Of a stretch of DNA of 64,000 nt, positions 1,625-46,018 are shown in pieces (positions within the stretch are counted from its first letter, which is position 1; each line of letters opens with the position of its first letter). The stretch is taken from NCBI RefSeq assembly GCF_011045215.1, contig NZ_CP049202.1; one strand, given 5' to 3'. The translations under genes were made by a program, and so were the position numbers. The DNA is from Escherichia coli (GTDB lineage Bacteria; Pseudomonadota; Gammaproteobacteria; Enterobacterales; Enterobacteriaceae). The notes below the pieces were generated by a model, which worked only from the letters and a program-made list of their open reading frames with translations, was not told the DNA's origin and ran no database searches.

Positions 1625-4600
1625 TCAGTCTCCGCCCAGGGTTTTCTCTTTCTGCAGGTCACGAACCATATCCCGCTCCATCTGCTGCAGTCGCTCCTGC
1701 AGCAGATTTTCCCGGGCAACCTCCCGGACCGCTTCCCGCACCCGTTGTGGTTCACGCAGTACACTCTCCGGCAGCGCGGCTTCCCGTTCAGTTATGGCAG
1801 CCCGGTCACGCTCCTGCCCGGCAATCTCCCTGACAGCCTGCTCTGTTTTGCCATCCGGCAGGTCAGGTTTGTTCTCTGCCATTTTACGGACAATTTCATC
1901 TGCGCGACGTTCCGTTTCACGGCGGATGGCCTCTTCAGCCTGCCGCTGTGCCAGTACCTCTGCCGTGACCGGTTCGCCATTTCCGGCCCCCGGCTGGACG
2001 CTGTTGTCCGGAATATCTCCCCACACGCGACCACCGGTGATGGCACCGGGATTCCACGGGCGACCTTCACCGGCAATTCTCACCACCACACCGCTGTCAG
2101 GATTATCACGAGCAATCCGGACGCCATCCTGCATGTTATCAGCCAGCAGACTCTCTCCGTTACGGCTGCCCTGCAGGGCCACGAACTGCGCATCTCCGCT
2201 GCCTTTCACCCGGCCTTCACCGCTGAATCCCCGCAGCCCGTTTCCGTCATCCGTAGTCAGTGGGTTCAGCCAGATACCGGCGGACTTGCCGTTACGGTCA
2301 AAAGCCGGCAGTGCCACATACGGCTGCGGATATTTGCGCCCCGGTGCAATAAACCGTGCAGGACTGTCTCCCCCGGCAAGTCCCGCCTGACGGAGAACGG
2401 CACGCCCTGCCGCCACGTCCCGCAGTTCCCGTGCCGTACTGAACAGTCGCTCTGCATTCATGACCTCCCGGTCAGCTTTCGGCTCCAGCACATCGTGGGC
2501 AGTCCCTTTCTGTACGGCATTGTTGATGGCATCCGTCCAGCCCTGACGGTCATCAGTGTACACCTGCACATGCTGCTTCATACGCGACAGGGCAACGTAG
2601 GCTGACTCAAAGCCGGCCATCTGTTTCCGGCCACCTTCCGTGCCTTCAAGCGCGATGGCAAAGGTTTCACTCGCCCCCTGTGCACCGTGGGCAGTGATGG
2701 CATAGGCCAGGTCAATATGTTGTTCTGCCTGCTCCTGACCGGGGCGAATCACCCGGGTCTGCAGTCCGTCAGAAAGCGTGACACTGTCACCGGAAACCGC
2801 CGTCACCGTCCAGACGCTGTTGGCCACATAGCCGCGCTCCCGGTCACTCTTCGTGAAGCGCATCCGGTCACCGGTCCCCACCCGGATGGTGTCCGGGGTG
2901 TACAGTGTGACACCTTCAGCCACCGCCTCCCGGGGCGAAATCAGCCGCGTGTTACCTTCCGCATCCTGCAGGGTTATCAGCCCGTCACCCTTACTGATAC
3001 CGGCAATCCGGTGATACACATTATCCACCAGGACAAGTGCGTCCCGATGTGTCTCCCAGGTGGAGAGACGACGCAACTCCCCGTCGCGTATATTCGCTGT
3101 GTTCAGGACAGGCACCATGACCTGCTCTTTTCCCAGCTCACCGGCCTTTTCCCGTGCATCATGAATCATGCTGTTCAGTACGCGCCGGTCCTCATTCAGA
3201 TGCGTGACAATCAGCGTCTGCTCCCGTGCTTCCGGCGTCCTGCCGGTATAATCGCGGACAATGGCTTCATACAGTGTCATGGGAATATCCGGAAAAGCCT
3301 CACCTTTCAGCATCGCCTTCTGCTGCGCTTCTGCCAGTTTCGCTTCCTGGCTGTGACTGAACTCCGTCACGGAGTGCTCCGGTACCCATGCGCCCTCCTG
3401 ACGTGGCACCTGAGACGGTTTCACACTCTCAAGCCCGGACAGTGCCCTTTCCACATCCCGGTTAATCAGGCTGTATACCGCCTCCCGCAGCTCCGGCGTC
3501 TGACGCACAATCTCCTTCATGATGGCCACATCGGCAGCACTGCGCGTCTGCTGGAGACGGAAAGGCTGACCGGGCGCGATGGCCTGCAGCTGGTCCGTGT
3601 CACCACTGGCCACGGCACGACCACCACCGGCCGCAATCAGGGCGTATGCCCGTGCCATGTCGGTATTGCCCACCATTGAGCTCTCATCGAGCAGGAACAG
3701 CGTGTTGCTGAAATCCGGCGTTTCTCCGCTGCGCTGCTGCAGCTGCGTGTCATGCAGAAAGGACGCCAGTGTCTGTGCATCCACGCCAGCGCTGCGCATC
3801 TCCCCGACCGCACGGTGCGTGGGCCCCAGCCCCACGACACGGGGACGCTCACTCTCCGGCAGCATGTTCACGGCTGACATCACCGCCCGGAACTGTGTGG
3901 TCTTACCCACACCGGCATAACCCTGCACCACCGTGAAGCGGTCAGAGGTTTCCAGTATCATGCGGGTGGCGGCACGTTGCCCCGACGTCAGTTTCTCCAT
4001 AAGTTCGCCAGGTACTCTCTCCATCAGCGGCGTGACAGCCTCCTTACCTTCGAGAATATGGCGAATAATGCTTTTTTCAGCCTCATATGACGCACGGGAA
4101 ACCAGCAGGTCTGTGCCATAACCTTTTGCCACATCCACATGCAGTAAATCACCGCGTTTTATCTGTGCATCGATTTCCCGCCCCAGGTCAGCAAAACTGG
4201 TTCCTTCTGCAGCAAACGACTTTGCCTCTGTCAGCAGGTCCACATGGCTGAAGGCCAGGTTTTTACTTTCCACCACCGGAAGGGCCAGATGAATGGCCTG
4301 CTGTGCCGGCGTGTGAAGTGCGGACTTCTGATGACTGATAGCGGTTTCCAGCGATGTCTCACCGGCCCGCGCCTTTATCTGCTCAGAAACCACCGTAAAG
4401 GAGGGATGGCGGGCAAGTTTTTCCGCAGTACGGGTTTCATCCAGTGAGGAATACAGCCGGACATCACGACCGCTGCGGGCCAGACCGTTCAGGGTGGCGT
4501 TGTCCATTGCCATCTGTGTGACGGAGGCAAAAACCTTCGCACTGTCGCTGACGGAATGCCCGGGCGTTTCCACCCAGCCGTTCTCCAGCTTCAGTGCCGT

Positions 4601-21879: not shown

Positions 21880-22332
21880 TTAATTACCCGTAGGGTTTTC
21901 TCTCAGTTTTTCTGCCAGTTTTAAAAAAGCATCAAATTCTTTCTGATCTGCACATATTTTACTGGCTGTAACCGACACGGTTATTCCTGATATGTTATTG
22001 GCAGAGTCTTTAACATCATTATTATGGACGGAGACATTATCGGGACTGAAAATATAAACCTTTTCTCTGGGATAATCCCTGTCCACATCCTCCCGCCACT
22101 GAATCTGTTCTTTATCAAAACGGTGATACATTATTGAGGAAAACCGGCACAGCCAGTCGTCAATGCATGACAGCTTATCCAGTAATTGTTGCGAATGACG
22201 GACCTCACTGGCAAGCTGCCGGCACTCCATAATGCACCGTGACACACCACCATTTGCATTCACAAGCGCTTTCATTTCCAGCAGAACACCCATATCAAGT
22301 ATTCTGGAGCCATATTTTATATTATTACTCAT
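21880..22332 (-). CDS. Hypothetical soluble protein, 150 aa (cargo between traU and trbC)
   Basis: AT-rich ORF overlapping the upstream 116-aa ORF by 8 nt. No recognised motif. Confidence 0.5.
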   Translation of the reverse strand: MSNNIKYGSRILDMGVLLEMKALVNANGGVSRCIMECRQLASEVRHSQQLLDKLSCIDDWLCRFSSIMYHRFDKEQIQWREDVDRDYPREKVYIFSPDNVSVHNNDVKDSANNISGITVSVTASKICADQKEFDAFLKLAEKLRENPTGN

Positions 22333-22660
22333 TACATCCTCCTCTGTTTTTGTTTACACACTTACCTGGCATAAACGCATCAGAGCACAAATATTTAAAA
22401 AACACAGCAGCAAAAGCACACACAAATGCAGCTTTCAGATATAGCCGGACCAGAAACATTTTCCCTGACATATCTGACTGTTGCCATTCATAAATAACCT
22501 CACTGAGGACACTATCAGGAACAAAATAAAACAATATTGCAGGTGCCATTACCAGATTAAAAGGAAACCATTTTAATGGTTCATTTATCAGCCGGATAAG
22601 CACACAACCTGTTCTTTTTAAATTATGTGTGTATTTACTTTTTATCATCTCAATTTTCAT
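22325..22660 (-). CDS. Hypothetical two-TM membrane protein (about 111 aa)
   Basis: ORF 22325..22675. The ATG at 22660 has SD GAGAGGAA. Begins just after the traU stop. Confidence 0.5.
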   Translation of the reverse strand: MKIEMIKSKYTHNLKRTGCVLIRLINEPLKWFPFNLVMAPAILFYFVPDSVLSEVIYEWQQSDMSGKMFLVRLYLKAAFVCAFAAVFFKYLCSDAFMPGKCVNKNRGGCNE

Positions 22661-22688
22661 AGATATTCCTCTCATTTGTTAACTCGAT

Positions 22689-23681: not shown

Positions 23682-24310
23682 TTTCTGCCCTCCTCTGCCG
23701 GAATAAATTCCACCTTCAGGAAGCGATCGCCGGGAACGGCGCTCACCCGTGCCGGGACCTGATCAATGCCGAGGCGCTGGCAGAGCACACCGTTCTGGTC
23801 AAAGTAAACACGGCTGTCCAGAGACTTCTGCATCTCCGGGATACTGCCCTGCACGAGGATAATTTTGCTCTCCAGTGTGGGCGGCGTCTGGCGTTTCATC
23901 CAGGCCACCTGCGCCGGATCATCGCCATTGATGAAATACAGCGTCTGGTTAAAAGGAACATACTGCAGCGGATTCATCACTTCACCCTGACGGGCAAACA
24001 CCCGCCCTTCGTTATCCCGGATATCCGCAGCCAGTCTGACGGACGGGTCAAACAACCGGCTGCCGTATTTCTCCGTGCGTCCGATACCGGGCACGGCAGG
24101 GGGCCGCAGACTGTTGCGGATCACCCGCTCCTTAAAGGCATCCATTTTCCGGCCCATCTCACCGGACTGCTCCAGTGCCGTCAGGCGCTGCATGATCACC
24201 GTCAGCATGTCCGGCTCCTTTACCGGCCACAGATCGCCCCAGGTACCAAGATCGGCGGCGGCCACACTCTGCCCCCATATCAGCAGGGCAATCAGCCCCC
24301 GGCATCTCAT
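23678..24310 (-). CDS. traW: TraW pilus-assembly protein, 210 aa
   Basis: Start at MRCRGLIALLIWGQSVAA. ATGA overlaps with both trbI and traU. Confidence 0.88.
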   Translation of the reverse strand: MRCRGLIALLIWGQSVAAADLGTWGDLWPVKEPDMLTVIMQRLTALEQSGEMGRKMDAFKERVIRNSLRPPAVPGIGRTEKYGSRLFDPSVRLAADIRDNEGRVFARQGEVMNPLQYVPFNQTLYFINGDDPAQVAWMKRQTPPTLESKIILVQGSIPEMQKSLDSRVYFDQNGVLCQRLGIDQVPARVSAVPGDRFLKVEFIPAEEGRK

Positions 24311-24687
24311 GGTTCCGCCCTCATTCGCCGGGCAATATCCTGCTGGATTTCCCGGGTGATATCCGGTGCCCCCTGTACCACAGCAGGCGACACCAGAATG
24401 ACCGCGTGGTGTTTCTGCTGCCACGCCTGCAGGCTGGCTTCCAGTGCCGTGTTAAAACGCGCTGAAAGGGCTTTTGACTGCGCTTCTGACAGTTGTTTCT
24501 GACTGGCGCTGTCAAAAAACGCATCCACGGTCTGTTTCATGTTGAAGGCGACAGTCACCGGTGCGTTCAGTCTGACAATGCCGTAACTGACGACCGTATT
24601 TATTGCCAGTATCCCTGCCAGCGCCAGCCACCACGAATGTCGTGATACCTTCTTTCTTCGGTCTTTTAATTTCACATCAGTACTCAT
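24307..24687 (-). CDS. trbI: TrbI, 126 aa
   Basis: One TM segment. Located upstream of traW (toward traC), as in F. Confidence 0.8.
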   Translation of the reverse strand: MSTDVKLKDRRKKVSRHSWWLALAGILAINTVVSYGIVRLNAPVTVAFNMKQTVDAFFDSASQKQLSEAQSKALSARFNTALEASLQAWQQKHHAVILVSPAVVQGAPDITREIQQDIARRMRAEP

Positions 24688-24770
24688 AATAATGCCCCTG
24701 TTTTCTCTGTTTCCTCTTTGCGGTAATATGCTTCCCTGATTTTCAGGTAAGTTAAAAAGGTGCGTTTTAT

Positions 24771-25878
24771 ATGACGAAAAAAATCCTCTTATTTTCCCTG
24801 ATTTTTATTTTTAGTATCACCGGCACTTTTTCTCTTATGATAAACGGCAAACAGAAAAAAAGTGCAGATAAAATCATTCCCGCAATCAACGCTAAATATA
24901 ATAATAAATGGCTTACACACAGATTAATAAAAATGGACTATGATAATGGAACGGCTTTATCTGTTATTCAGAAAGCATGGAATAACACCGAATACTTCAT
25001 CCTCTCAGCCAGAAAAAAAATGCCAGTCAGCCACAACCACTCTTAATTTTCTTTACTGCACAAATGATTTGCTTGGCGAAATGTTTCCTTATAAGGAATC
25101 CAATATGGTCAGCCCGGCATATGCCAGTCAGTTCTCTGATTGCGATCTGAATGTCTATCTTCTCATTGACGCAGCAAAAGAATCTGGCAGGCAGATTGAG
25201 ATCATATTCGCCCCCTTCCACGCTTTTATTTCATATATTGATGATAATAATGCAAGAGCATACTGGGAAACAACCGCCAACCATAATAAAGGTTCTGTTG
25301 CGGATTTAAATGATAATCACTGGTATCAAAAAACATTCAATAAATTCTATTATGTTCCTCGTAGTGAAAATTACATAGAATCACTCTACTCTGTACTGAT
25401 TGCAAATAGTGTAGACTCATCACATAAAAAAGAAATATACAACAATCTTAAGCCGGAAATAAAAAAGACACCATTAGCCTATGATCTGTACTACAGCATG
25501 AAAAATGAAATCTCGTCTCAGGATGCCGAACAGATTAATCTTTTGTTAAGAGAAGACATTACCTCATCATATAAACAACTTCTTCTTACCGGATACTTCA
25601 TTAAAAACAACAATACAGAAGCAGCCCAAAAAATCATTGACAACATACGAGCAAAAAACTGTAAATCAGACTGCATTAGGTTTAAGAAAAAAGTGTACTG
25701 GTACTTTTTTCCATCATATCTGATCTCTCAATATGCATCGGAATTTGGCGTCACACTATCCCTTGAAGATATATATTATTATTACGCATTCAATATTATC
25801 ATTATTCTGTTTAGTTCCCTTTTATTTTTGCCTAAAAGCAGAGATAAGAACAAGAAAAGGCGTGAGAACAATAAATAA
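24771..25878 (+). pseudogene. Frameshifted gene for a secreted/membrane transglutaminase-like (papain-fold) plus TPR-like protein; about 368 aa if restored
   Basis: ORFs 24771..25046 and 24940..25878 join if the A8 tract at 25013-25020 were A7. N-terminal signal/TM and C-terminal TM are present. The segment SDCDLNVYLLIDAAKESGRQIEIIFAPFHAFISYIDD resembles transglut_core2 (SirB1-like) proteins. Confidence 0.5.
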
Positions 25879-26238
25879 CAGAGCAGGCACACCCCCATCC
25901 ATAAGGAAACTCAGGGGGAGACTGCAGGTTACAGGCACCATGATATAGCATCCCATCACGATCAAAGGGCGATGACGACACAGTTCTGTATATTCATATA
26001 ACCCGGTTCTGCCATATAAATCCCTGACAAGCAAAGACGGAGCAATCATAAACAAAACGCTTACAATGGCATAAATCATCAGCACATATTTTGTTTCTCT
26101 CAGAAATGGTTCCGGTGTATTTATTTCTGATTCAACAAAACGCTCATACCAGTACAGAAACAGGTCGCCACAGGCCACACTGTTAAGGATAAAAAATAAG
26201 ACAATATCAGATACCTTCTTTATATGACAAAATTTCAT
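25822..26238 (-). CDS. Hypothetical 4-TM membrane protein, 138 aa, immediately downstream of traC
   Basis: ATG at 26238 with SD AAGGGG. Its 3' end overlaps the convergent + strand ORF by 57 nt. Confidence 0.55.
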   Translation of the reverse strand: MKFCHIKKVSDIVLFFILNSVACGDLFLYWYERFVESEINTPEPFLRETKYVLMIYAIVSVLFMIAPSLLVRDLYGRTGLYEYTELCRHRPLIVMGCYIMVPVTCSLPLSFLMDGGVPALLFIVLTPFLVLISAFRQK

Positions 26239-26260
26239 ATATACCCCTTGTGACCAACCC

Positions 26261-28906
26261 TTAACCCCAGTTTCCTGACATTCGTTCGCCGGACATTTCA
26301 TGCTCTTTTAACCAGGCTTCCAGCGAAGCCATCTCCGGCCCTGACTTCTTCCACGCCAGCTGCCACACCGCCTCATGAATACTCAGGCCCTCTTTACGCT
26401 TCTGCTGCACAAACTCAAAATCCGGGCCGTCGGAGCTGTACATGGCACGGCTTAACGGGTCCACAAACAGACGGTGCCAGGAGGAATGGTTTTCCACCTG
26501 CAGCAGGAAGGAACTGAACCACTGGTCTTTAGCCGCACCAAACTTGCCAATCATGTCCCGCTGCAGTGGCAGGAACTGGTCCGGGAATAACTGGTTATAT
26601 TTCGCGAACTCCTTCGCACTCTGTTTGAGGATAATTTTGTAGGAGGAGTTACCCCATGCCGCACGGGCCGCACTGGAGGCCTTGTCAGAGTCAAAGTCGA
26701 CGATGTTCTGTGTGATGGTGATATAGGCACCGGTATGACGGCGACAGGTGCGGTAACCTTTTTGAATAAACTCACCGACTTTACGATTTTTGAAGTCCAG
26801 CAGACGCCAGCCTTCATCAATGACGTTCAGTTTTTTGAGAGTACGCGGCGTGCGGTACATCCTGTTCTCGATGTAGATAATCAGGGAGAACATCACCGCA
26901 ACCAGCAGGGACGGACGGTCTTCCAGTCCACCCAGCTCCAGCACCACCATTCTGGCATCATCCCGCAGGGACGGTTCATCAGAGTTAAAATACCGGCCGT
27001 AAGTGCCGCCAGCGGTATATTGATCCAGAAGGACAATCATTTCATCCAGACGGCTGCGGATGGTCGGAGACTCGACATACTGGTCGTTATCACGGGCGTT
27101 TTTCAGGAAATCCACCACATCATCGATGCGCGCCTTATTCTTTTTAGCCAGCCAGGAGGCCCTGACCGCCTGCAGCAGCAGACCTTCATGTACTTCATCC
27201 AGGTTACCGTTGGGGCTGGCCATCACCGACAACTGGTCACGGACACGCTCCGCTGACTGGTCAATATCAGTGATGTTCGCAAACGGGTTAAAACGCAGGG
27301 TTTCACCGTCCAGATATACGCCCCCCATGTTCTCACACAGGGACTTGTAGCCATCCCCCATGTCGAACACCACGGCAAAGCCCCCGGAGTCCAGCACGCT
27401 GCGGATAAGTGGCTGTATCAGTCCGGTTTTACCGGCCCCGGAGGTGCCACAGACCGCCATGTTGTAGTTGGTGTTATTCATCCCCTTAAAGAAGATATCG
27501 ATAAACGCCAGCTGGTTACGGTAGGTGGGCGCCAGCAGACCTGCCGGTGTCAGGGGATTATCCGCCACTAACGGCATCAGGTTGGCCACATTAAAACTCT
27601 CTGCCCGCTGTACCACTCCGGCCTCTTTCAGCTGTTTAAACAGCCCTTTCCCGGCCATAAAGGGCAGGCAGGTCAGGAAATTGCGCATGTGGTTAAAGCG
27701 CGGTGAAATCAGCTCAAAACCGTTTTTACGAAAGCTGTTCAGGATGTCCTGCTCCACTTCCAGTGCCGTTTCATTATTGTCCCTGCAGAAGGCTGTGATG
27801 TTGAGGAAGTAGGACACGACAGAAGACTGGCCGGAGCCCAGCCGCTGGCGCAGTTCCCCCCACTCCTTCGCCTCCTTTTCAACTGACGGAAACCATTTGG
27901 CATAGGAGGTCTTCGACTTTTTCTCCAGGTCCATGTACTTCAGGTTGGCTTCGCTGTGGGTTTTCACCTGGTCTTCCACCACCAGAGTCAACGTCAGGAT
28001 GAACGGGCAGGAAATGGACATTTCCGGGTTCAGCAGATTGCTGTAGTTGTCGGCCATGTTCCACAGGAAGGCGATTTCCGGGTTACGGGCCAGATGGAAA
28101 TTCAGGATGCGGGCCGTGCTGTTCCTGCCGTTCTCACGCAGGCCCAGCGTCAGGTAATCAGCCCGGACTTTCAGGTCAAAACTGTCCTCCACACACTGAT
28201 AATTCAGATCAGAATACGGATCCAGCTGACGTCTTTTCGGGTACAGAGAGTCCGGATTATGGTTAATCATCTCCCCGACAATCTCGATGAAAGCCTGTGC
28301 ATCCACTGTCTGTGTGGTGATTTTTGCGCCGTGAAAAGAGGCACGGATGATTTTCACCAGATTTTCCATTTCCAGAATGTCAGCCCGGCTTTTTTTCTTC
28401 GAGGGAGAACAGTACGAGATAAACACCCGGTAATGGCGCAGGGTCAGGGGCAGATTCATCCCCTCCGGCAGCGGGAACTGTGTCGCTGCCGCTTTCATAT
28501 AATAGGCACGGGTAATGGCGTTAAACCGTTCAGCCTGTTCACCTGACCAGGAGAACTCACGCAGCCCGTATTCAATCCTGTCACCAACCAGCTGACTGGA
28601 CATCAGATGGATACACAACGGAATACCGCGCGGCAGTTTGGTGCGCAGCATATGATCGAGAGCCTCCACAATGGACTCATTCGCACCATTGATGGGAATG
28701 GCTTCCAGCATAAAGCCCATCGTGGTGTCATTCATGAACAGGCCGGACTCCTGGTTGTAATCACGGTACGGCAGCAGACGGCTGAACTGCGGGAAGCTCA
28801 TCTCACCGAGGATCTGATTAGCCTGAGAGGATTCATCCGGTAATTTAAGCGCAGTCAGCAGTGAATTAACCGCCTGAGTGACGGTCTCAAGTGGGTTTTT
28901 ACTCAT
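26261..28906 (-). CDS. traC: TraC (VirB4-family) pilus-assembly ATPase, 881 aa
   Basis: Walker A GTSGAGKTG. Matches F TraC as recalled except for the last ~12 residues. Confidence 0.95.
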   Translation of the reverse strand: MSKNPLETVTQAVNSLLTALKLPDESSQANQILGEMSFPQFSRLLPYRDYNQESGLFMNDTTMGFMLEAIPINGANESIVEALDHMLRTKLPRGIPLCIHLMSSQLVGDRIEYGLREFSWSGEQAERFNAITRAYYMKAAATQFPLPEGMNLPLTLRHYRVFISYCSPSKKKSRADILEMENLVKIIRASFHGAKITTQTVDAQAFIEIVGEMINHNPDSLYPKRRQLDPYSDLNYQCVEDSFDLKVRADYLTLGLRENGRNSTARILNFHLARNPEIAFLWNMADNYSNLLNPEMSISCPFILTLTLVVEDQVKTHSEANLKYMDLEKKSKTSYAKWFPSVEKEAKEWGELRQRLGSGQSSVVSYFLNITAFCRDNNETALEVEQDILNSFRKNGFELISPRFNHMRNFLTCLPFMAGKGLFKQLKEAGVVQRAESFNVANLMPLVADNPLTPAGLLAPTYRNQLAFIDIFFKGMNNTNYNMAVCGTSGAGKTGLIQPLIRSVLDSGGFAVVFDMGDGYKSLCENMGGVYLDGETLRFNPFANITDIDQSAERVRDQLSVMASPNGNLDEVHEGLLLQAVRASWLAKKNKARIDDVVDFLKNARDNDQYVESPTIRSRLDEMIVLLDQYTAGGTYGRYFNSDEPSLRDDARMVVLELGGLEDRPSLLVAVMFSLIIYIENRMYRTPRTLKKLNVIDEGWRLLDFKNRKVGEFIQKGYRTCRRHTGAYITITQNIVDFDSDKASSAARAAWGNSSYKIILKQSAKEFAKYNQLFPDQFLPLQRDMIGKFGAAKDQWFSSFLLQVENHSSWHRLFVDPLSRAMYSSDGPDFEFVQQKRKEGLSIHEAVWQLAWKKSGPEMASLEAWLKEHEMSGERMSGNWG

Positions 28907-29032
28907 ATGAGTATTCCTTAGTGCGTTTAAAAAAGGAAAATATCAGTCTGTGGGCCGTGGATATATCACGCAGTGCCATTCTTAAAACCACAGCACAAAT
29001 AAGAGATGGAGGCTTTTAACAGGAAAACAGGA

Positions 29033-29395
29033 TTAACGTTCCTTTACTGAATGAGCATCATTTAATGCCTGAAGTTGTTTTTCGCGTATCTTATTGCGCT
29101 CGTTTTCTCTTACCCGTTTCACCTCTGCCATTTCGTTTCTTTCTCTACACGCTGATGCAAGCTCTTTTGCCTTACCAAGACTTAAAGGTTCAGGCTGATA
29201 ATCAGATGTGTCAGACTTAATAGCTTCCTTAAATGCTTCTGCTGCACAGGGGGTATCCTGTGTAATCTCTGTCAGTTGTTCTGGTGTTGCAGGTTGTTGC
29301 TCAAGGTAATCATTGTAAAAAAGACCACATATCAACATAGCCATAACACCAACAAATATAAAAGCCAGAACAGATTTTAAATATATCGACTTCAT
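29033..29395 (-). CDS. Hypothetical TM-anchored protein with a charged C-terminal region, 120 aa
   Basis: N-terminal TM. ATGA overlap with the upstream ORF. Confidence 0.5.
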   Translation of the reverse strand: MKSIYLKSVLAFIFVGVMAMLICGLFYNDYLEQQPATPEQLTEITQDTPCAAEAFKEAIKSDTSDYQPEPLSLGKAKELASACRERNEMAEVKRVRENERNKIREKQLQALNDAHSVKER

Positions 29396-29662
29396 TTCAT
29401 TTTAGCCTTATATAATTCCCATTGTCGGATATACTCCTCATACTGAGCCACTGGCACATTAACGATGACTCCGGCACACTCCAGTTTATTAACCGGTTCA
29501 GTAAATGCGCCTGTCGGTATATTCACTTCCAGAAATTTACAGTCATTTTTCCAGTATCTCCCGACATCCAGTTCATCCATCGTGAATGACTGACTGGCGA
29601 ACACAACAAGCGTAATAAAAGAAAAACATCCAGTAAGCACACTACAAACTAATATTTTTCAT
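29392..29662 (-). pseudogene. Small exported protein gene; the ATG at 29662 is out of frame with the body because of an A5 tract (a GTG at 29640 is a possible alternative start)
   Basis: The ATG overlaps the upstream ORF's stop (ATGA). With A4 instead of A5 (29655-29659) the product would start MKILVCSVLTGCFSFITLVVFASQSF. Confidence 0.4.
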
Positions 29663-29796
29663 CTGCTGATCTGCAGACTGAATTTTTCAGGGATAACAAA
29701 CATAGCCAGTAAGTTAACAACACAGATAACCACAAGAAAGAGACACAGGAATATAAACCAGTCGATATTATTTCCTTCGAAGTAGTAAGCTCTCAT
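29659..29796 (-). CDS. Small hydrophobic peptide, 45 aa
   Basis: MRAYYFEGNNIDWFIFLCLFLVVICVVNLLAMFVIPEKFSLQISR. ATGA coupling at both ends. Translated by hand; not in the ORF track. Confidence 0.4.
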   Translation of the reverse strand: MRAYYFEGNNIDWFIFLCLFLVVICVVNLLAMFVIPEKFSLQISR

Positions 29797-30011
29797 TGCC
29801 CACCACCATTCAGTGTTTCCATCACATTGTTCAAAGGTTCATTTGTTTTAACTTCAATACACTCCCCTGTATTTCCAAAGCCCCTGCCTCCATGCGCTTC
29901 GATTGTCCGAAGAACCTGCACGCATACGTCCGTATTTGGCATGGGAGTAACATTCCAGCTTCCGCCACCGTTAATATTTTTTATCAGCACAAGAAAAATA
30001 AAGGTATGCAT
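29793..30011 (-). CDS. Hypothetical small protein, 72 aa
   Basis: ORF in the coupled chain between traR and traC. Confidence 0.4.
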   Translation of the reverse strand: MHTFIFLVLIKNINGGGSWNVTPMPNTDVCVQVLRTIEAHGGRGFGNTGECIEVKTNEPLNNVMETLNGGGQ

Positions 30012-30089
30012 TCTTTATTACCTCCAGTTAAATATTAATCACTGAATATTCATTCAGTTAACTATGAGGTCAGAAACACCGCAGATTTT

Positions 30090-30563
30090 TCATTCGGATT
30101 TACTCTCTTCAGAAAACTGCCGGATGGTATCCTGTTCACGCTGACGAGTGGCAGACTCCTGCATTGCATCCACTTTCTCCTGCCAGAGACGCCGGATATC
30201 CTTTTCATCCCGACCAGTCAGTTTTTTACCGGACAGCAGACGGTTAAGCAGTTCCTGTCTCGCATCCGGTATGTCTTCAGTCAGACGCATAAGCTGAAGC
30301 AGGCTCTGACGGCTGAGGACCATGAGTGATTCTGGCAGGAGGGTGAAGAAGCAAATAAAACAGCATACCGCACCACTGCAGGCAAGGACCGCAAACAGGA
30401 TTTTCAGATATATACCATCAACGCCGAACGCAGCAATAACACAGGGAATCCATGCAATACACGCACAAAACGCCAGGATGTTATATATTCGGTTATGTCT
30501 GCGATATATCTGTTGATGTTCATCCAGAATAAAATCGATTTTTTCAGCTTCTGATTTATGCAT
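30090..30563 (-). CDS. Hypothetical two-TM protein with a helical C-terminal tail, 157 aa
   Basis: Start at MHKSEAEKIDF overlaps the traR 3' end. Hydrophobic core ILAFCACIAWIPCVIAAF...AVLACSGAVCCFICFF. Confidence 0.5.
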   Translation of the reverse strand: MHKSEAEKIDFILDEHQQIYRRHNRIYNILAFCACIAWIPCVIAAFGVDGIYLKILFAVLACSGAVCCFICFFTLLPESLMVLSRQSLLQLMRLTEDIPDARQELLNRLLSGKKLTGRDEKDIRRLWQEKVDAMQESATRQREQDTIRQFSEESKSE

Positions 30564-45461: not shown

Positions 45462-46018
45462 TTTTCAGCCCCCATCATCTTTTGAGTTTCAGGAGCCGCG
45501 GTTTGACGTTTTGCGGGGACCTGCCTTTTGTTCCCTCCGGTATTCACCATCACCTTTTTGAGAACCTTCGCCGCAAGGGGCATCACTGCCACGGCCGGAA
45601 ACGACTGTCCGGGGGCAGACCGCAAAAGTTTTTGCCTGCTTCTGGGCAAAAACTTTTGCGGGATGTGCATTTCACCCCTGGACTGGCGGAGACGGTTGTG
45701 GCTGTATCAGCCCCCGGCGACAGGGGATTAAACAGGTGAATGGCACCGGACAGAACAACGGGCAGGGCCCCGCCGCAACGACGGAGAGCGCGTGCGCGAA
45801 ACGGCGTTGCCCCTTACATCCCGGCGGCCTTTTGTCGGGATGCCGGGAGCGCAGGCCACGGCGCGACAGAGGCGGCGCGACCGGAACGGTCGCTGCAAGC
45901 CAGGGTTTCGCGTCAGGGATAGAAGCCCGCCAGGGCGGAGACAGCTCCGCTGGCTCCGTTCACGACAGCCCGCCCCGCCCCGCCAGGGGGACGCCCGGAA
46001 AAGCCATAAACAGGAGAG
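45462..46018. repeat. Direct repeat copy B (~557 bp) immediately upstream of ssb
   Basis: Near-identical to 40067-40620. Confidence 0.9.
45515..45770 (-). promoter_or_regulatory. Frpo/ssi-like long hairpin, copy B (candidate ssDNA promoter for ssb-psiB-psiA)
   Basis: Apical perfect stem 45621-45636/45645-45660. The arms are as in copy A. Confidence 0.6.

Follow-up and report, generated by a model that had tools for sequence, protein, structure and literature searches.

Two convergent genes between traC and trbI

The window, by which we mean the whole stretch of 64,000 nucleotides (nt) of DNA analysed here, belongs to Escherichia coli contig NZ_CP049202.1 (assembly GCF_011045215.1) and carries an F-type transfer operon on the − strand. 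Between two genes of this operon, traC and trbI, lies a cassette of two convergent genes, which is the subject of this paper. Its GC content is 0.32–0.42 over about positions 24650–26300, against 0.53–0.62 in the flanking tra genes. The small gene of the pair (25822–26238, on the − strand as the tra genes are) starts 22 nt past the traC stop, is preceded by the ribosome-binding site AAGGGG, and encodes a protein of 138 amino acids (aa) with four hydrophobic segments. The large gene (24771–25878, + strand, antisense to tra) is frameshifted; AAGGTG precedes its start at 24771, and the gene would encode 368 aa if restored. The two genes overlap tail-to-tail by 57 nt (25822–25878). All other large or core tra open reading frames (ORFs) of the window are intact.

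The frameshift lies at a run of eight A residues (A8; 25013–25020, + strand), which is one base longer than the run (A7) of otherwise identical copies. Deletion of one A restores the 368-aa frame. As it stands, the large gene yields a truncated product of 91 aa (24771–25046), made of a first transmembrane (TM) segment, TM1, 60 residues, and an out-of-frame tail. The remainder in the original frame (25105–25878) is annotated as a 257-aa ORF from Met112 and is without the N-terminal anchor. The restored protein is laid out as TM1, a transglutaminase-like core that is putatively periplasmic, TPR repeats, a second TM segment (TM2), and a basic tail. Since the small gene has the tra orientation and no visible promoter of its own, it is presumably expressed from the tra transcript. 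An Rfam scan of 24000–27000 gave no match.

The history of the segment can be read by comparison with a cassette-less relative, plasmid CP010123, in which the trbI start overlaps the traC stop (the empty site). The window diverges from this empty site from about 24590 to about 26305, and the divergent segment comprises the low-GC cassette together with other versions of the trbI 5' end and the traC 3' end. The initial ~32 codons of trbI (24307–24687, − strand, 126 aa; Pfam TrbI_Ftype, E = 1.5e-31) and the final ~14 codons of traC (26261–28906, − strand, 881 aa) thus lie inside it. An earlier sequence-only reading of this DNA had described a low-GC insertion of ~1.6 kb with two genes, one of them a four-TM gene of 138 aa that follows traC on its strand at a distance of 22 nt, a convergent overlap of 57 nt, and a + strand gene split at A8 that A7 would restore to 368 aa. 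The GC profile and the empty-site comparison (which is insertion-like), the ORF coordinates, and the deletion of one A bear out these claims. The same reading had taken the last ~12 residues of TraC as the mark of the junction; the traC end does differ, over ~14 codons, but the first ~32 codons of trbI have been replaced too.

The segment is carried at traC–trbI by 24 of the 2423 PLSDB plasmids that match the flanks, and in RefSeq complete E. coli genomes it was found on four plasmids. The alternative trbI start and traC end that accompany the cassette point to an old entry and to spread by flanking recombination. Judged from these borders, the cassette appears to be an old arrival in one tra lineage that has since spread among F-like plasmids via recombination in the flanking tra genes, and not by recent transposition. 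Convincing terminal repeats of the kind found at transposon ends were not present at the segment borders. A 12-nt perfect direct repeat, GATACCTTCTTT, occurs at 24644–24655 and at 26210–26221, 1566 nt apart, and encodes KKVS in both copies, near the N-termini of TrbI and of the 138-aa protein; with ~0.1 chance matches expected it is probably due to chance, though recombination could have left it as a footprint. Chance is also the probable source of an imperfect inverted pair of 16 nt near the segment borders.

Recurrence of the gene pair in conjugation operons

Homologues of the large protein recur in transfer operons. A scan with one genome per species yielded 13 loci with a homologue. In four Pantoea replicons, for example, the homologue is antisense to tra and lies between traH and traF; in Ewingella it lies, likewise antisense, between traG and traD. 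The positions known in F-type operons are traC–trbI (the window), traU–trbC (loci L030 and L060), trbA–traQ (L059), beside traH, and traG–traD; copies also lie at two places in I-type (Dot/Icm-like, shufflon-bearing) transfer regions. The trbA–traQ and traU–trbC homologues in annotated E. coli plasmids are 35–37% identical. Across F-type and I-type operons there are at least seven different insertion positions, and in all operon-embedded copies (at least 13) the large gene is antisense. One constant orientation at seven or more positions argues for a functional constraint. At the protein level, homologues were found on 112 PLSDB plasmids, of which 102 are typed as conjugative, and every one is labelled 'hypothetical protein'. 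The large gene lies between conserved tra genes, is variably present, and belongs to the non-essential set; it is an accessory gene of the F-type tra operon.

The small gene recurs with the large one. At nearly all of the operon positions examined, a further ORF, of 110–165 aa and with multiple TM segments, runs in the tra direction and overlaps the large gene at its 3' end by 10–170 nt. The 138-aa protein itself has 13 clusters of close homologues and positional equivalents in at least 10 other loci. The partner at L030 is homologous to it (BLASTP E = 6e-5) and has the equal relative position. In an alignment of 13 sequences the small partners have little in common except one Pro and their topology; for partners from distant loci, the sequence resemblance to the 138-aa protein is not significant and is limited to the topology and a few positions. 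Annotation frequently lacks the small overlapping gene though its ORF is intact, as in CP057013 (L003) and its relatives and in L059 and L060; the overlap tends to make automated annotation leave it out. At L059 (NZ_AP024124.1, 3372–4875), for example, a 381-aa homologue and an unannotated overlapping small ORF fill the trbA–traQ slot.

In plasmid F (L061), the trbA–traQ slot holds the unrelated antisense gene artA (4207–4521), and the slot and orientation are thus reused by other cargo. As the large gene does, artA lies antisense within the tra operon with an orientation of its own, and in plasmid KS-NP019_P1 the exact artA slot is taken by a large-gene homologue. ArtA is a 104-aa membrane protein unlike both cassette proteins. 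A relation to ArtA was rejected (BLASTP E = 12; hhalign probability 0.15%); only the slot and the orientation are in common.

Homologues of the large gene are also found on chromosomes. In Raoultella scottii (L024, 5830–7077) the homologue lies directly after the type VI secretion system (T6SS) genes tssF/tssG, and in Gilliamella (L026/L027, 5833–7056) homologues lie between truB and a gene for a lacI-type regulator. Both are without the small partner.

The window has two further low-GC stretches within the tra region. One (GC 0.35–0.42; 21880–22680, − strand) lies between traU and trbC and holds ORFs for a soluble protein of 150 aa (21880–22332) and a membrane protein of ~111 aa (about 22340–22680), both of which are also called in L046. 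These ORFs are unrelated to the cassette, though other plasmids hold the cassette at that position. The other (GC 0.38–0.42; ~28920–30090) lies between traC and traR/traV and holds small ORFs that are labelled 'hypothetical' in CP010123. Several variable slots for cargo seem to exist in F-like tra operons.

Fold, predicted membrane topology and putative catalytic triad of the large protein

Scans of both cassette proteins against Pfam, NCBIfam, PADLOC, and PHROGs gave nothing meaningful, and neither protein matches a family of anti-phage defence (PADLOC) or of phages (PHROGs). A word-indexed search found only nine clusters of the large protein, none below 78% identity. With a full HMMER profile search the family grew to 79 representatives (50% clustering), mostly of 360–420 aa, which align end to end. 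Among 51 family members, Pfam gave only a weak TPR_19 match, in two; a profile search of PDB sequences with the family gave just marginal TPR matches, and a viral fold library gave one weak match, to a giant virus. The large protein thus seems to belong to a new family, one absent from Pfam, NCBIfam, PADLOC, and PHROGs; the fold superfamily itself is known. The ratio of nonsynonymous to synonymous substitution rates (dN/dS) between alleles of the large gene is ~0.3, which indicates that the gene has been under purifying selection.

In the 51-sequence alignment F105, Y107, P148, H150, and Y185 are invariant, and S122-D123-C124-D125, E166-T167-T168, and four cysteines are near-invariant. The residues of a putative triad are Cys124, present in 50 of the 51 members, His150, present in all 51, and an acidic residue at position 166, also in all 51 (49 Glu, 2 Asp). 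AlphaFold2 run on nine near-identical sequences reached a predicted local distance difference test score (pLDDT) of 51, and the 51-sequence alignment was used instead; the resulting model of the restored protein has a pLDDT of 94.2 and a predicted template modelling score (pTM) of 0.89. The model runs from a long N-terminal helix (residues 2–28) through a helical region to helix 124–137 and to strands 142–147, 150–156, and 162–166; a stack of paired helices then extends to residue 323 and is followed by a hydrophobic helix (331–352) and the basic tail. A nucleophile helix packed on an antiparallel sheet, as in the transglutaminase-like (papain-fold) core, is present in the predicted model. Cys124 (codon 25141–25143, + strand), the putative catalytic nucleophile, lies at the N-terminus of helix 124–137, and His150 (25219–25221) and Glu166 (25267–25269), the acidic residue of the putative triad, lie on successive strands, the second and the third of the core sheet. 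The putative catalytic Cys/His/acid residues of a papain fold, which the sequence-only reading had expected, are therefore conserved in 50–51 of 51 members.

Lys and Arg residues precede TM1 and follow TM2, as read from the sequence, and suggest an in-out-in topology in which the central domain would face the periplasm. The cysteines Cys84/Cys96 and Cys297/Cys301 are all present in 47 of 51 members and all absent in the four most distant, a pattern that fits periplasmic disulfides. From the flanking basic residues and the disulfide pattern together, the central domain is likely to be periplasmic. The four most distant members (P0076, P0078, P0081, and P0082) keep the Cys-His-Glu triad without the four cysteines, and may form a subgroup with another cellular location.

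Three known systems resemble the large protein in part. By far the top structural match of the model is menin (PDB 3re2, 3u84), a transglutaminase-like domain followed by TPR repeats (PMC13256885). Identity to menin is ~10%, and a relation at the level of sequence is absent. Menin is a nuclear, soluble, non-catalytic eukaryotic scaffold, whereas the large protein is predicted to have two membrane anchors, a probable periplasmic site, Cys pairs, and the Cys-His-Glu triad. LapG, of the BTLCP family (PDB 4fgo), is a periplasmic transglutaminase-like cysteine protease (PMC3032545). The likeness of the large protein to LapG is at the fold level only, with no Pfam or sequence match; LapG is soluble, lacks TPR repeats, is regulated by LapD and cyclic di-GMP, and cuts a large adhesin. 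Genes resembling those of LapD or LapA were not found near the cassette.

The third system is the chromosomal pair SirB1 (YchA) and SirB2 (YchQ), in which a transglutaminase-like protein with TPR repeats is encoded beside a four-TM protein of ~130 aa, parallel to the large and small genes. SirB1 is without TM segments and has lost the catalytic His (consensus Q), and its genes are co-directional (prfA-prmC-ychQ-ychA), whereas the cassette pair is convergent. The sequence-only reading had seen in the large protein a TM anchor, a 'SirB1-like' transglutaminase-like segment, TPR-like repeats, and a C-terminal TM segment. At the level of the AlphaFold2 fold this layout holds, but homology to SirB1 does not. 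Membership of SirB1/UPF0162 was rejected: the restored protein has no match to PF13369 or PF13371 (E ≤ 10), and none of the 51 members matches either at E ≤ 0.1, including Transglut_core2. Profile comparison by hhalign against a 15-sequence SirB1 alignment gave a probability of 0.05%, and against E. coli YchA alone no relation. The 138-aa protein and ten positional equivalents likewise have no match to PF04247 (SirB2), despite the four-TM architecture of the neighbour. Several public calls fuse SirB2 and SirB1 into a 401-aa product (PF04247 + PF13369 + PF13371; P0102–P0112); these are probably read-through or frameshift calls across the 4-nt ychQ-ychA gap of E. coli K-12.

Inactivation of the large gene and its interpretation

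All 15 of the relatives first compared (five plasmids and ten metagenome or Logan contigs) have one base fewer at the A run. In five of these ten contigs, A7 is the sole difference from the window over 1751 nt, and A7 was seen in 11 near-identical copies. On these copies A8 looked like a one-off error or a singleton mutation. Exact-sequence look-ups overturned this view. Contig VNXN01000053.1 (GCA_009820175.1, L047) is identical to the window over 2832 nt, A8 included. The Logan assembly SRR3213947 (L046) combines A8 with 25322T and 25891T, which are single-nucleotide polymorphisms of the A7 haplotype in L007 and L013, and its flanking tra genes are ~2% different. The 91-aa A8 product (P0222) is public under EFK5197625.1, MXC53907.1, QIF16477.1, and WP_160521696.1, and the 257-aa remainder (P0227) is called adjacent to it. 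The comparison with related plasmids that the sequence-only reading had proposed thus gave both lengths, A7 in near-identical copies and a recurring A8. Since A8 occurs in independent assemblies with differing backgrounds, it is a real inherited lesion, found on two haplotypes and two plasmid backbones, which either repeated slippage or recombination could explain.

That the extra A is a sequencing or assembly error and the large gene is intact in the real plasmid, as the sequence-only reading had allowed, is very improbable. Homopolymers are a classic site of such errors, and the single-base insertions in plasmid records L004 and L005 are possible errors from assemblies that hold other broken genes. 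An error would have to account for the identical A8 in L047 and, next to different flanking tra genes, in L046, and for the exact 91-aa product under several protein accessions. Nor does the window assembly appear to be generally error-prone, because over 26 kb it has no single-base homopolymer discrepancy with plasmid CP057013, to which it is 99.6% identical. Clean indels in these 26 kb are confined to copy-number differences of a CCCGC-type 5-nt and an AAGAAG-type 6-nt repeat, at 45969 and 46050. There are three runs of eight or more identical bases in the whole window.

The large gene has at least eight different lesions in E. coli plasmids. A nonsense change, W70* (TGG to TAG), is found in 50 contigs, and in 28 contigs the product ends after K220, which would fit GAA to TAA. 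In another allele an A8 run at codons 3–5 has lost one A, leaving a call from Met23, and a metagenome copy, otherwise identical, is one A short in the A6 run that lies at gene position 690. Further lesions are a frameshift after residue ~204 and a window-type allele called from Met23. The restored form of the P0005-type allele and the hypothetical A6 product were not in the protein collection. A rough tally among the members listed gives ~479 contigs with an intact and ~130 with a disrupted large gene (roughly one in five, 21%). Among the variants listed, the small gene is full length in at least 750 contigs. A8 looks like one of many loss-of-function lesions, for which A runs are the easiest but not the sole route. 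The overall picture is of a functional gene that E. coli plasmids have lost irreversibly many times over; such numerous independent knock-outs in F-like plasmids suggest that the large gene is dispensable or costly there. On A8, slippage by RNA polymerase could put a small fraction of the mRNA back in frame, and the allele may thus be leaky; ribosomal shifting by −1 would leave the large gene out of frame.

It may be asked whether the A run is instead a slipped-strand contingency locus, which would switch the large gene adaptively and at high frequency between ON (A7) and OFF (A8). The sequence-only reading had offered such a switch, and there are likenesses to known contingency genes: a change in the length of a mononucleotide run within the coding sequence shifts the frame, it is reversible in principle, both lengths are natural and A8 lies on two haplotypes that are also known with A7, and more frameshifts lie in other A runs of the gene. 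Compared with contingency genes, however, the run is short, just 7–8 bases, and is not conserved among alleles. In the commonest allele (203 contigs), and in five of five records of a metagenome-wide pattern scan, the tract is interrupted (AGAGAAAAA); uninterrupted A7 is confined to the window-type allele, and distant family members are without the tract. Within the window-type allele the ON state is in strong excess, with A7 in 41 contigs and A8 in 3–4 (~10:1), and equivalent inactivation has come about irreversibly by the point nonsense changes given above. We therefore consider a dedicated switch unlikely.

The reading that we prefer, with a probability of roughly 0.6, is that the window has a null allele of the large gene, as part of an accessory periplasmic peptidase module that is associated with conjugation and has been lost repeatedly. 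The cassette would be a compact two-gene unit that resides, in Enterobacterales, within operons for conjugative type IV secretion. A TM helix at each end is predicted to fix the large protein in the inner membrane, with the core and TPR repeats facing the periplasm. To judge from its conserved residues, it may be a Cys-His-Glu peptidase, or a related amidase or transamidase, most likely acting on a peptide bond. Its substrate would be an envelope or transfer-apparatus protein held by the TPR part, and in the membrane the large protein would be partnered by the small four-TM protein. Transcription of tra would have to cross ~1.1 kb antisense to the large gene before it reaches trbI. The F tra operon is polycistronic, and with this layout opposed expression of tra and the large gene is to be expected. 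In the window, replication slippage would have added one A to A7, leaving the large gene null or at best leaky.

A different account of the same pair is a toxin-immunity or addiction system, in which the large protein is a toxin that acts in the periplasm, the small protein is its immunity, and the toxin decays while the immunity is kept. The tight, convergent, overlapping pairing is conserved at 25–35% protein identity, the large gene is frequently disrupted and the small one apparently intact, and one homologue adjoins T6SS genes. Yet the large protein is predicted to be anchored at both ends in the membrane of its producer, without a delivery domain, the chromosomal homologues of Gilliamella and Raoultella lack the small partner, and matches to toxin families, in PADLOC or elsewhere, are none. 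The asymmetry of loss is also less telling than it seems, with ~80% of copies retaining both genes and the small gene being a 2.7-fold smaller mutational target. On balance a toxin-immunity pair is doubtful. A menin-like role, in which the large protein is a non-catalytic scaffold whose TPR groove aids the assembly or stability of the transfer apparatus and whose Cys, His, and Glu residues are structural, finds its grounds in the match to menin, the TPR domain, and the position of the gene within assembly-gene clusters. It is quite unlikely: the Cys-His-acid set is positioned as in the catalytic layout of the superfamily and is kept in 50–51 of 51 members, whereas it has been lost from menin and from E. 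coli SirB1, and a gene frequently lost while tra genes stay is not a core assembly factor.

Several points weigh against a conjugation-associated periplasmic peptidase module. The best structural match is to a non-catalytic scaffold, the putative triad rests on conservation and on predicted secondary structure, and no experiment or annotation ties any family member to a function. The chromosomal homologues have no partner, and the conjugation link is thus not absolute. A hidden Markov model of the 138-aa family gave no significant match to the partner ORFs of Pantoea and Citrobacter. The sequence-only reading had given the + strand gene a putative promoter of its own, but a sigma-70 consensus scan found none upstream of 24771, and terminators were likewise not found. 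The contigs counted are not independent isolates and the figure of 21% is rough, A8 on two haplotypes could reflect recombination and not repeated slippage, and several lesions in A runs leave some room for a contingency-like benefit.

A more specific form of the peptidase module, which is possible but tentative, is that of a conjugation modulator. Here the large protein would be a membrane-tethered periplasmic cysteine peptidase, expressed in opposition to tra through convergent transcription, that targets a component of the transfer apparatus, the pilus, or an incoming partner; the four-TM protein, co-transcribed with tra, would shield the machinery of the plasmid itself, and loss of the large gene would be adaptive tuning. 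If this is true, the losses, often at A runs, would tune transfer or the susceptibility to pilus-specific phages.

The chief vehicles of resistance and virulence genes in Enterobacteria are F-like and I-type plasmids, whose transfer operons are regarded as well catalogued. Within tra operons, accessory and antisense genes are already known; homopolymer frameshifts are known as well. Literature searches for the gene-pair module found no description of it; what appears to be new is that its pairing and orientation are fixed, that it recurs within conjugation operons of two types, and that it is often inactivated. A conserved pair with an enzyme-like signature lies in a fixed and unusual orientation within these operons and is 'hypothetical' in every record examined. 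For annotation, the A8 copy is to be treated as a genuine pseudogene allele and not to be 'corrected'. If the cassette has an effect, its natural set of on and off alleles would serve tests of that effect, and an influence on transfer, exclusion, envelope integrity, or phage sensitivity would make it a new regulatory or protective layer of conjugation.

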